Source of the DNA: Negaprion brevirostris
Taxonomy: Eukaryota
Length of the DNA stretch: 64,000 nucleotides
Reading direction: 5' to 3'
NCBI GenBank assembly: GCA_030324005.1
Contig: JARDVH010000099.1
Span: 48,389,090-48,453,089, forward strand
Part shown: one piece after another, positions 13,040 to 27,140 of the stretch
How the letters are laid out: each line of letters starts with the position of its first letter
How positions within the stretch are numbered: position 1 is the first letter of the stretch
Notes under the pieces: model-generated
Seen by the model: only the letters and a program-made list of their open reading frames with translations
Told to the model about the DNA's origin: nothing
Database searches by the model: none
Position numbers and translations under genes: made by a program

Positions 13040-13930
13040 CATCAACGGCTAACAACAACATACATATATATAGCACCTTTAAAGTAATGTGGTGCTCCAA
13101 GGTACTTCACACTGAGTCATATAAGGAAATATTAGGACACAAACCTTGGCACAAGAAGTAGGTTTTAAAGTCTTAAAGGAGGAAAGCAACATAGGGAAGC
13201 AGAGAAGTGTAGGAGTGGCATTAAAGCTTGGGGTCTTCGTAGCTGAAGGAGTGGCCACTAATGGTAGAACAGTTAAAACTGGGTTGCGCAAGAGGTTAAA
13301 ATTAACAGAGTGCAGATATCTTGGATAGCTATAGGGCTGGAGGAGATTACAGAGATAGGGAGCGATGAAGTTATGGAGGGATTTGAAAACAAGGATCAGG
13401 ATTTTAAAATCAGGATGTTCCTTGACCAGGAGCCAACGTAAGTCAGTGAGTGCAGGGCTGGTAGGGAAATGAGACTTCCTGCAGATTAAAGAACAGATAG
13501 CAGAATTTTGGGTGATCTCAGGTTTATGGAGGGCAGAATGTGGGGAACCATCCAGGAGTGCTATGGAATAGTTGAGTCTAGAGGTAATGAAGATGAGAAT
13601 GAGCATTTCAGCAGATGAACTATGGGATGAAATTGGATGATGTTACAGACAGCCTTTGTAGAGGCACAAATATGAGGGCAGAAATTCATCTTCAGATCAA
13701 ATGTGACAGCAAGGTTGTGAACAGACTGGTTTGATCTCAAACTGTTGGCAAGGAGAGGGCTGGAATCAGTAGCTAGAGAATGCAACTTGAACCAGGGAGC
13801 AAAAACAATTGCTTCAGTCTTCCCAGTATTTCATTGGAGGAAATTTCTGCTCATCCAGCACTAAATGTCAAAAAAGCAGCTTGATAATTTAGCACCACAG
13901 AAGTAGTCAGGAGAGATGGTGGACATGACC
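13040..13930 (-). mobile_element. L2 LINE 3' fragment
   Basis: ORF 13079..13606: FITSRLNYSIALL..QNSA..ALTDLRWLLV..FKILILVFKSLH..APYLCNLLQPY, typical L2 ORF2 C-terminus; (TGT)n tail at ~13050. Confidence 0.85.
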
Positions 13931-14853
13931 TTACCTGCTGCACATACTACACTCCCGCTGCACAGAGGTCGGAGAATTTGGTGGCCAGCCAAATCTCCAT
14001 CCAATGCAGCGGGATGGAAAATCCTGCCGGCATGAACAGTGATGAAAATTCAGCCCTTGTGTGGTAGACTGGGTGTGAAAATTAACACTGTGCCTTAAGA
14101 TAATATTGCTGAGGGACAGCAAGCAGATGAGAAGCAGGAACCTTTTAAAGCACATCCCAACTTAAAGCAAATTTTAAGGTATTTACTGTGCAAAACTGAT
14201 TAAGCAATCTTGAAATGTAACAACCCTATTGCCTCATGTAATAGCAACAAGCTATTATTAAAATTAATCCAATCGCAGCTATTTGTTTACAAACTTGAAT
14301 TTAGGTGACTGCCATTCCTGCAATCTTGGTGATATAAATAATGAATATCATATGATTATATAGTTTTTGGTTCACAATGTAATACTACGCTGGAGGAAAT
14401 ACAAGTCTTTTTTTGTCAAATCTATTCACAGTTAATCATATTGATAACCTGATCTCTTTATGCCCACTGTAAAACAAATACATTATGTTGGGAAGTCCCT
14501 CCTTCAGTCAATTTTCATGGAACTTTATTTTTCAAAAAAATCCCACTGGGAAATTTTGCTATTGAAGTTATTAGAAATATCTCTGATATATCAGTAGCTC
14601 TAATACACTAGGAATAATGCAAAGTATGATGGAAAATATAAATGAAAAAATATATTTAAAAACTCTGTGACCAGTCTGAATGAGTATGTCACTACAGTAA
14701 CTGACTTCATTAGTAAGTGTGTAGAAGACTGTGTGCCAAAGAAGCAAATCCGTGTGCTCCCCAACTGGAAACCATGGATGACCAGGGATCACAGCTTGCT
14801 GAAGTCTACGTCTGAGGCGTTCAAGTCAGGTGACACTGACCTACACAAGAAAG

Positions 14854-15175
14854 TAAAAAGTCTGACAACACCAGGTTTTAGTCCAACCGATTTATTTGAT
14901 AGTAAACTCACAAGCTTTCGAGGNNNNNNNNNNNNNNNNNNNNNNNNNNNNNNNNNNNNNNNNNNNNNNNNNNNNNNNNNNNNNNNNNNNNNNNNNNNNN
15001 NNNNNNNNNNNNNNNNNNNNNNNGAGGCCAGAACTCTCCATTCACCTGACGAAGAGGGTGTCCCCTCGAAAGCTTGTGAGTTTACTATCAAATAAATCGG
15101 CTGGACTAAAACCTGGTGTTGTCAGACTTTTTACTGTGTTTACCCGAGTCCAATGCCGGCACATCCACATCATGT
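14854..15175 (+). mobile_element. Penelope-like insertion with inverted pseudo-LTR arms and 13-bp TSD
   Basis: Arms 14852-14923 and 15064-15135 are reverse-complementary at 71/72; TSD CTACACAAGAAAG at 14841-14853 and 15176-15188; ~40-nt 3' extension. Confidence 0.85.
15042..15079 (+). ncRNA. Minimal type-I hammerhead ribozyme motif (PLE-associated)
   Basis: TCAC-CTGACGA-A-GAGGG-TGTC-CCCTC-GAAA-GCTT-GTGA: stem I TCAC/GTGA, core CUGANGA, stem II GAGGG/CCCTC, GAAA, palindromic AAGCTT in place of stem III. Confidence 0.7.
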
Positions 15176-16524
15176 CTACACAAGAAAGCCAGATATGATC
15201 TAAGGAGATCCATCAATGATGTCAAAAGACAATACCAGACCAAGCTAGAGTCCCGGGCTAGCCACACTGACCCTCGCCAACCATGGCAAGGTCTGCAAGA
15301 CATAACAGGCTACAAGATGAAGGCATGTAAAATTGCTGGCTCCAACGCACCCCTCCCTGATGAGCTCAATGCATTCTACCCCTGTTTTGAACAAGAGGTC
15401 AGCGAGAGCATGCCCTCTACCCTGGAAGCCCTGGATTAACCTATATCTGGGGTCACCACTGCAGATGTCAGAGCAGCCTTCTTGAAGGTCAACCCACAGA
15501 AAGCGACTGGCCTGGGTGGGGTACCAAGATGAGCACTCAGATCCTACACAGATCAGCTGGTGGAGGTATTCACAGATATCTTCAACCCCTCTTTACAACA
15601 ATCTGAGGTCCCTATCTGTTTCAAGAAGATGACCATCATCCCAGTACTTAAGACAAACAAAGCAGCATGCCTTAATGACTATCGGCTGGTGGCTCTGACA
15701 TCCATCATTGTGAAGTGCTTCAAAAGGCTAGTCATGACATGAATCAATTTCAGCCTCCTGGACTACTTTGATCCAATACAGTTTGCCTACTGCCGCAACA
15801 GGTCCACAGCCGACGCCATCTCCCTGGCCCTGCACTCAATCCTGGAACATCTAGATAACGAGGACACCTATGTCAGACTTCTATTTATTGATTACAGCTC
15901 AGCCTTTGATACTATTATTCCTATGAAACTCATCTCCAGACTCTGTGGCCTGGGCCTCGGCACCTCCCTCTGCGACTAGATCCTGAACTTCCTAACTCAC
16001 AGACGACAGTCAATAAGGATAGGCAACAACACCTCCTCCACAATCATCCTCAACACAATTTGTATGGCCAAATTCCCCTCCAATTCGATTTTCAAGTTTG
16101 CTGATGACACAACCGTGGTGGGTTGGATTCCAAACAATAATGAGACAGTACAGGAAGAGATGGAGAATCTGATGAACTGGTGCAGCAACAATAATTTCTC
16201 CCTCAATGTCAACAAAATGAAGGAAATTGTCATCGACTTCAGGAAGCATAAAGGAGAACATGCCCCTGTCTACATCAACGGGAACAAAGTAGAAAGGGTC
16301 AAGAGCTTTTAGGTGGCCAGATCACCAACAGCCTGTTTTGGTCCCTCCATGCCAACATTATATTTAAGAAAGCCATCAACACCTCTACTTTCTCATAAGA
16401 CTAAGGAAATTTGGCATGTCAGCTNNNNNNNNNNNNNNNNNNNNNNNNNNNNNNNNNNNNNNNNNNNNNNNNNNNNNNNNNNNNNNNNNNNNNNNNNNNN
16501 NNNNNNNNNNNNNNNNNNNNNNNN

Positions 16525-16600
16525 GCCATGATCTTATTGAATGGCGGGACAGGCTCGAAGGGCTGGATGGCCTACTCCTGCTCCTATTTCTTATGTTCTT
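16525..16600 (+). mobile_element. CR1 LINE 3' terminus
   Basis: GCCATGATCTTATTGAATGGCGG..AGGCTCGAAGGGCT..ATGGCCTACTCCTG..TTCTTATGTTCTTA; near-identical to 51875-51957. Confidence 0.85.
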
Positions 16601-17159
16601 AGAACACAATGTAATCTCCTCTGTCATGGCTAAAATTAGGTGACTGAAGCCATGATCAATGAGCTTTCTTACAGCAGAAATAGTCTCACTCCAAGGACCA
16701 AAAAGAAATAGGCCAGAAAGTGACAGAGTAATCAGGCTTTGAAGGCTTGAACCAACGCATTCTATGGAGATCAGATAAAAACAATCTTTCTGGAGTTATT
16801 AAACTTGAATTAACGTACAGATAATTCTTTCCAAAATGAAGCACTTCCACCATCTTGAATATCTTAATTCCTGGAAAACTTAGTATACTTTTGAGGTATG
16901 TTCATCGCACAAGGTACTTTAAATGGCATAACCTGTCTATGTAGAGAATTATGGAGTGATCCGAAATCTATTATAAATACACCAGTTAAGTGAGAATAAC
17001 AGCTAGCTGCTTGTCTACCTAGAATATCTGGAATCCCCTGCTGAAGGCTTAAGCAGTTTCTGACTATCCCTGTTTCTCCCTAGCTCTGTAGTCTCCTTCA
17101 ACCCCACAGTCCTCATTCTGGTCTCTGGGGCATCCTTCACTTGAATTGCTCCCCCACAG

Positions 17160-26729: not shown

Positions 26730-27140
26730 AACTCAAATTACAAGATAATGGTTGGAATGTGAGTCTTTACAGGTAATCGAGTCTTAAAGGTAAATGAGTG
26801 GTGAGAGGGCCAAGCACAGGTTAAAGAGGTGTGCATTGCTCCAGCCAGGACTATCTGTAACTCCCGCAACTTAGTGCAAAATCTCACTAACTGTCCTGGC
26901 TGGAGACAATACATACCTCTTTAACCTGTGCTTGCTCACGTTGCCTTGATTACCTCTAAGACTTGATTACCTGTAAAGACTTGCATTCCAACCATTATCT
27001 TATAAATTGAGTTTGTGTCTGTATGTGCCCTGTTTGTGAACACAACTCCTTACCCCTTTGATTAAAGAAGCAAACTCTGAAAGCTTGTGCTGCCAAATAA
27101 ACCTGTTGGACTTTAACCTGGTGTTGTGAGACTTCTTACG
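26730..27140 (+). mobile_element. Penelope-like inverted-repeat insertion, older copy of the family at 14854
   Basis: Arms ~26730-26851 and ~26891-27012 are reverse-complementary; ends GAAAGCTTGTG..AAATAAACCTGTTGGACTTTAACCTGGTGTTGTGAGACTTCTTAC. Confidence 0.8.

Follow-up and report, generated by a model that had tools for sequence, protein, structure and literature searches.

An inverted, one-tailed insertion of a Penelope-like element with a minimal hammerhead motif in the shark Negaprion brevirostris

Introduction

In the 64,000-nucleotide stretch of the Negaprion brevirostris genome analysed here (the window), a decayed reverse transcriptase (RT) frame is split by a short insert with inverted arms, a target-site duplication (TSD) and a hammerhead motif. 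The locus raises the question of which element left this structure, how its two arms came to face each other, and whether the hammerhead acts there. The general scheme of an inverted pseudo-LTR (pLTR), tail and TSD is described for EN+ Penelope-like elements (PLEs) in PMC8557442, and minimal hammerheads were reported in 2014 from fish Neptune, Poseidon, and Xena elements (PMC4209133). All of these features are therefore already published; the value of the locus is that of a clean test case for the PLE integration mechanism, which is unsettled. Sharks are absent from the main text of PMC4209133, the supplements of which may list cartilaginous fish, and no account of shark PLE hammerheads was found in the full-text literature, most subscription journals and Repbase/Dfam lying outside this scope.

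Architecture of the Insertion

The features of the host frame and of the insert are as follows.

14646..16424, + strand: host, a decayed non-LTR (LINE) RT frame split by the insert (frame reading, weak RVT_1 matches)
14841..14853, + strand: left TSD, 13 bp, exact copy of the right TSD; sequence CTACACAAGAAAG
14852..14923, − strand: left arm, inverted pLTR 3′ end without a tail; its 3′ end is the internal site
14924..15023, no strand: assembly gap, 100 N, concealing both inner arm ends and their junction
15024..15175, + strand: right arm, pLTR 3′ end with a tail; 97% identity to the closest other copy scored
15091..15096, + strand: AATAAA, conserved across subfamilies, putative polyadenylation signal
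15136..15175, + strand: one-sided tail, 40 nt, its last bases being the ORF's ATG start codon (15172-15174) and one further T
15176..15188, + strand: right TSD, 13 bp, exact copy of the left TSD CTACACAAGAAAG

The first-pass annotation had described an insert interrupting an RT frame, and a LINE-type frame, putatively Rex1-like, indeed resumes after the TSD: it continues across the duplication once the insert is removed, with five stops downstream, and two pieces of it match RVT_1 weakly, under the curated Pfam cut-off. The exact 13-bp TSD that had been proposed was found at both junctions. Its sequence is the sole 13-mer that recurs at a spacing of 200-600 nt in the whole window, and the chance expectation for a 13-bp TSD at a fixed junction pair is approximately 2e-6. 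The AG that the left arm was said to share with the TSD is present as the first two nucleotides of that arm, and so is the right-arm extension ending in CATG-T, which corresponds to the tail. The left arm ends at -37 relative to the ORF ATG. Its complementarity to the right arm was likewise confirmed, with 71 identities over 72 positions between 14852-14923 and the reverse-complemented 15064-15135 and a single mismatch at 15101, whereas the arm length of 72 bp given earlier is that of the sequenced part and hence a lower bound, the inner ends being set by the 100-N gap. The inverted pLTR arrangement with a tail thus holds, with one tailless arm, one arm with a 40-nt tail, and a TSD.

The locus is genuine and well preserved, but as a representative of a known element type it is ordinary, one of thousands of similar stubs. 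The insert is best explained as a non-coding, 5′-truncated stub of an EN+ PLE consisting of two back-to-back pLTR 3′ ends, although the gap could hide a longer, even full-length element; this explanation as a whole, including the double priming discussed below, is considered very probable. Elsewhere in the window, at 26730-27140 (+ strand), lies an older copy of the same pLTR with 69% identity and a decayed hammerhead, inside which a short inverted piece is present at 26815-26836.

Element Family, Coding Region, and Clade

A search of the same genome with the right arm returned 2,468 candidates, and the 40 that were scored are mostly 94-97% identical to it; furthermore, a 24-mer of the subfamily has 2,676 exact genome matches, with 0 matches for the control. 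By upstream walking in copies of this subfamily that are free of gaps and 87-92% identical to the arm, the end of an ORF was reached approximately 200 nt upstream of the arm. This ORF end comprises PCHSNLCKTC followed by VVYLI..C..WYIGET, its stop coming after DLGFMSHYL. The pLTR is formed by the 3′ flank of the ORF (approximately 200 nt past the stop) and leads into the ORF start. In older copies the ORF reaches further, to GTAMG, YTRYIDD, and the thumb region, and one gap-free locus (L334) holds RT, EN, and pLTR in one piece, its pLTR being 82% identical to the arm. The RT link was made via older subfamilies with 73-82% identity to the arm; a full-length copy belonging to the young subfamily did not turn up in the genome searched.

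A protein search with the ORF end yielded 25 matches among 152 candidates. The named matches come from Mustelus, Scyliorhinus, Heptranchias, and Chiloscyllium, and unnamed relatives are proteins of 881-882 aa with RVT_1 and PF26215. A Pfam-A scan of the element's own ORF pieces, including the EN piece, gave no match, and a PDB sequence search gave no relevant match; EN and RT of the linked ORF are recognised by motif and homology. On these grounds the element is identified as an EN+ PLE with the ORF order RT, then C-terminal GIY-YIG, as had been supposed from the arms alone, since the arm is now linked to an ORF of RT and GIY-YIG type; the proposal of a shark family agrees with the sharks from which the named relatives come. 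A C-x4-C-x2-C linker (PCHSNLCKTC) precedes the GIY-YIG motif in four copies (L065, L069, L134, and L142). A Zn-finger-like CX2-5CxxC linker marks the Neptune and Nematis clades (PMC8557442), and the vertebrate PLEs in a survey that covers one chondrichthyan are Neptune and Poseidon (bioRxiv 10.64898/2026.07.22.740005). Judged from the Cys linker and this survey, the element likely belongs to the Neptune clade.

Two further observations concern the distribution of the family. Pieces of the ORF are annotated in isoforms of shark host genes (P0005, P0007, P0008, P0011, P0013, and P0023), including septin 5a, XRCC5, USP8, CYP2C31-like, and others; these probably reflect errors of annotation or repeats that were exonised. 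On C31, four clustered young hammerheads were considered as a candidate full-length element and rejected, as they turned out to be separate stubs without an ORF; the four young stubs lie inside 5 kb (L344, G000:C31:9185000-9192500) as a local insertion cluster.

Age and Activity of the Subfamily

The first-pass annotation had further called the insertion young and recently active and its CpGs intact. Observed and expected CpG numbers are 7 and 10.6 in the insert, 635 and 2,604 in the window, and 20 and 76 in the host. Because depletion is milder in the insert than in window and host, the subfamily is younger than its surroundings, and to this extent the insertion is young. The right arm nevertheless carries three rare changes in 151 nt (approximately 2% private change), including a family CpG that has decayed at 15154, and its CpGs are thus not all intact. 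Its nearest copy, among the 40 scored of 2,468, is 97% identical, and the two arms differ at 1 of 72 positions. The subfamily is moreover common to related species: public runs labelled as other organisms also contain the arm sequence at high depth, and in one such run the unique flank shows 8 differences over 381 nt. At the insertion site itself, where an empty or filled site was sought in four public runs, unitigs are broken by the repeats, and the junction is drowned out by paralogous copies of the LINE. No complete, stop-free ORF was found among the 69 scored of 37,146 candidates, the longest stop-free match being 407 aa; in a fragmented assembly such an absence is compatible with a live element. 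The description of the family as recently active is not borne out by these results, given that the subfamily occurs in other labelled organisms and the scored candidates hold no intact ORF.

Two 3′ Ends and a Single Tail

Most copies of the family terminate at, or a few bases from, CACATC-ATG. There are 58 exact matches that run on into MATIDT, of which 30 were examined, most of them from older subfamilies. When compared with the full-length protein P0006, the MATIDT N-terminus lines up from residue 1 onward (46% over 80 aa, E 8e-19), and the ATG at 15172-15174 is therefore the start codon of the element. Many older copies are short rearranged fragments reaching 20-80 codons into the ORF (L148-L177), and, according to these fragments, priming inside the 5′ end of the ORF also occurs.

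Relative to this ATG, the 3′ ends of the arms are bimodal, lying at about -38 to -30 and at 0 to +2. Among 95 loci ordered by position (the first 100 listed places of the 24-mer, from which one duplicate and one previously examined place were left out and three close pairs merged), 46 arms have an internal terminus, 28 terminate at the ATG, 13 run into a gap, and 8 stop elsewhere. The two kinds of end are combined in single insertions. Among 56 candidate inverted pairs, 31 have a TSD of at least 10 nt, and 30 of these 31 carry exactly one tail, the remaining pair being unclear; 20 of the 31 came from queries that included the tail, so that one tail or more is guaranteed in these pairs, whereas a tailless partner arm is not. 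In the position-ordered sample, all 10 TSD-confirmed pairs have one tail, whereas independent choice of ends would give 47% one-tail pairs and hence, by hand calculation, 10 of 10 with a probability of about 0.47^10 = 5e-4. In total, 40 of 41 TSD-confirmed inverted insertions bear a tail on exactly one arm. The exceptions to the pattern, a tail/tail pair (L271) and an internal/internal pair (L260), are both without a TSD. At the former (L271:1050-1420), the second arm is the tail alone, joined at a CACTGTG microhomology, and no TSD was found. TSD length is 10-15 nt, mostly 12-13, with 56% AT across insertions, and the same layout with TSDs of 11-15 nt is found in gap-free copies (L006, L013, L091, L092, L095, L098, L099, and L100).

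The arms of one insertion resemble each other. In 14 pairs, they show 45 differences in 1,140 nt, i.e., 3.9% vs 5.5% for shuffled partners (P 0.005), and differ at 9 of 64 diagnostic sites vs 36% for shuffled partners (P 0.001). Furthermore, both arms of L345 (508-875, TSD of approximately 13 nt) carry a private small insertion near AATAAA, yet the arms of two other TSD-flanked insertions differ at 3 of 10 (L013) and 4 of 14 (L056) subfamily-diagnostic sites. One template is thus usual, and two templates occur. Microhomology at the junctions is short, the value for the tail end being biased by the query used, and it is given no weight here.

Around the internal 3′ end, the segment 15097-15158 of the window is predicted to fold into a long stem-loop. 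In most copies GTTGGACT could pair with the tail AGTCCAAC, and the two start sites would flank the 3′ strand of this pairing; a stem of GUUGGACU and AGUCCAAC around the internal start site is possible.

The Hammerhead Motif

The right arm contains a minimal type I hammerhead motif with the following parts.

15040..15081, + strand: minimal type I hammerhead motif (core pattern, stems, covariation)
15040-15045/15076-15081, + strand: stem I, 6 bp, one G-U
15046-15052, + strand: CUGACGA, C3 at 15046, followed by an extra A at 15053
15054-15058/15063-15067, + strand: stem II, 5 bp
15068-15071, + strand: GAAA, G12 at 15068
between GAAA and the cut, + strand: A-GC-U, palindromic, in place of helix III
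15075, + strand: N17 = U, predicted cut 15075/15076

The string spelled out earlier for this ribozyme and the AATAAA after it are present as written, with C3 at 15046, G12 at 15068, U17 at 15075, and AATAAA from 15091. Exact core patterns number 12,493 in the genome against 0 in the controls, 788 of them of the subtype in the window. The conservation of CUGANGA/GAAA, which had been put forward as a check, was examined in 238 copies anchored downstream of the core, 129 of which have a perfect one. Of these 129, 126 have A as the extra base and 125 have GC as loop 3; position N17 is occupied by U in 91 copies, by A in 36, and by C in 2.

Covariation had been suggested as a check of both stems and is found in one of them. 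Between subfamilies, pairs 10.2-10.4 of stem II alternate between G-C and A-U, so that 145 of 180 are Watson-Crick vs 96+/-6 after shuffling, a procedure that ignores relatedness between copies, and 54-80 in slid controls; the sample comprises 60 of the first 100 listed motifs, and pairs were counted from both ends of this stem of variable length. The subfamily types are GAGGG/CCCTC, GGAGC/GCTCC, GGAAC/GTTCC, and GGGG/CCCC. As these distinct stems retain pairing, helix II appears to have been kept by selection in the parent lineages. In helix I, which is partly fixed by the search pattern, the same motif sample gave no covariation. An Rfam scan of 13500-17000 gave no hammerhead match up to E 10. 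Rfam hammerhead models expect helix III, which minimal motifs lack. With its AGCU and covarying stem II, the motif agrees with the first description of it as a minimal type I hammerhead with a palindromic loop III.

The shark motif resembles the minimal hammerheads of PMC4209133 in its type I topology, an additional base that sits after position 9 and ahead of 10.1, G10.1-C11.1, a palindromic 15-16 region without a real helix III, a short helix I, and thousands of single copies. By contrast, its helix II has 4-5 bp vs 7-8 bp in Schistosoma families, and its loop 3 is the 2-nt GC. The 12,493 exact motifs compare with approximately 4,000 in coelacanth and 9,000 in Xenopus (PMC4209133), counts made with different descriptors and thus not strictly comparable.

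Does the Hammerhead Act at This Locus?

A possibly functional self-cleaving RNA had been proposed for the insertion. That the hammerhead here is an active self-cleaving RNA, as a monomer or a dimer, with a role of its own would accord with the presence of every core nucleotide, with the covariation of stem II across subfamilies, and with the right arm folded alone, in which stems I and II form at a probability of 0.68-0.85; the z-score of the hammerhead fold alone (-1.07) is unremarkable. Nevertheless, helix III consists only of A-U around 2 nt and cannot close in a monomer, and in a dimer the AGCU helix (-2.5 kcal/mol) is weaker than a rival 6-bp AAGCUU duplex (-4.3 kcal/mol with U17), which pairs A14 and U17. 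In a read-through RNA, the arm-arm duplex is predicted at -136.6 kcal/mol and buries GAAA and the cut site. In published assays, monomers of minimal PLE hammerheads showed no cleavage (PMC4209133), and the anole PLE hammerhead cleaves only with the element protein (PMC11167929).

The copies themselves point in the same direction. Both arms of the window run through the predicted cut site, the left arm by 12 nt, and their RNA template was therefore uncut. Family-wide, 187 of 260 arms pass the cut site by at least 10 nt, a proportion inflated by a sample that favours arms reaching upstream of the hammerhead. A pile-up of 5′ ends, taken as a genomic proxy for self-cleavage, is missing at the cut site: 0 of 91 non-gap 5′ ends start exactly there, and the bin at -12 to -7 largely reflects alignment breaks at the subfamily-specific stem II. 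Neither strand of the insertion has more than one hammerhead in sense orientation, barring further ones inside the gap. An active ribozyme at this locus is accordingly considered highly unlikely, and the proposal of a functional one is not supported; the hammerhead of the window copy is predicted to be silent, blocked by its mirror-image arm.

Proposed Integration Mechanism and Alternative Origins

A mechanism that would account for these structures can be outlined. The endonuclease would make a double-strand cut with a 13-nt stagger, whereupon the top-strand 3′ end would prime at the internal site approximately 38 nt upstream of the ATG, with a 2-nt AG/CU match, and the bottom-strand 3′ end would prime at the ATG. 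Both cDNAs would run toward the RNA 5′ end, copying uncut element RNA, and would be linked head to head at a point that the gap now covers; fill-in of the staggered ends would yield the TSD. As for the hammerhead, maintained by selection in the parental lineages, its activity would be confined to the dimer or to RNA assisted by the element protein. In its specific form, this proposal states that one RNP primes both ends of a 12-13-nt staggered double-strand cut in a fixed asymmetry, always at the ATG at one end and always approximately 38 nt upstream at the other, usually on the same uncut RNA twice and sometimes with a second RNA; we rate this form at somewhat below an even chance.

The closest support comes from Poseidon PAc of Anolis carolinensis, for which both target strands are cleaved and extended in vitro (Frangieh et al., 2024, PMC11167929). 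PAc has two RT start sites on its RNA, the spacing of which equals the tail, and hammerhead cleavage is unnecessary for its insertion in vitro (PMC11167929). The one-tail result fits these two start sites, and the shark family is like PAc in that genomic 3′ ends lie at two start sites and uncut RNA serves as template. The systems differ in other respects: the PAc starts lie 111-118 nt inside the ORF, whereas the shark sites lie approximately 38 nt upstream of the ATG and at the ATG; the PAc ATG lies in the hammerhead, whereas the shark hammerhead is approximately 100 nt upstream of the ATG; and, unlike PAc, the shark element has the Cys linker of Neptune/Nematis and TSDs that, at 56% AT, lack a strong AT bias (PMC11167929). 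In Adineta vaga, Pen2a_Av and Pen2_Av similarly show head-to-head pLTR ends, a tail of 30-40 nt on one arm, and a short TSD, and Pen2 elements share with the shark locus an insertion into a non-LTR retrotransposon and assembly gaps at the structures (PMC3846280). The TSDs of the shark family (10-15 nt, mostly 12-13) are longer than those of A. vaga (8-10), the shark tail ends at the ATG whereas pLTR and tail in A. vaga take in 12-22 ORF codons, and the shark host holds thousands of copies, unlike A. vaga (PMC3846280).

Double priming has to be weighed against other origins of the inverted arms. They might instead have arisen without priming at both target ends, a single cDNA or an antisense template having folded back or primed itself. 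Self-priming on an antisense template has been proposed from junction palindromes (PMC3846280); also in favour of this origin are a palindromic junction in the gap-free copy L008, the greater likeness of arms within an insertion than between random pairs, and the private insertion shared by both arms of L345. By itself, however, fold-back does not account for a second arm that terminates at a fixed internal position, the commonest 3′ end in the position-ordered sample (46 of 74 classifiable arms), and the diagnostic differences within L013 and L056 point to two templates in some insertions; this origin is regarded as unlikely. It could also be asked whether the inverted structure is an assembly artefact, produced by unrelated insertions or a mis-oriented contig end across the gap, given that the 100 N lie exactly between the arms and many family copies abut gaps. 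The exact 13-bp TSD with a host frame continuous across it, and the same layout in gap-free copies with TSDs of 11-15 nt, leave this reading a negligible probability. Equally improbable to the point of dismissal is that the insert is a MITE or a non-autonomous retrozyme instead of a PLE stub. Such elements share with it the short length, inverted ends, TSD, and hammerhead, but its ends are asymmetric, the inner breakpoints differ between copies, TSD length ranges over 10-15 nt in the family, and the arm continues upstream into the end of a PLE ORF, a link that largely refutes this origin. Moreover, a tandem array of hammerhead monomers, a trait of non-LTR retrozymes, is absent from 14000-16600, where no tandem repeat was found and the arms are inverted.

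Significance

With its two sharply defined 3′ ends, its almost strict limit of one tail per insertion, and its uncut templates, the family extends the in vitro result for anole Poseidon to a likely Neptune element in vivo, and sharks join the hosts in which minimal hammerheads reach very large numbers. If the proposed mechanism is true, an inverted insertion with one tail is what double-primed reverse transcription of a PLE would normally produce, and the thousands of copies in shark genomes would make these the place in which to measure double priming.
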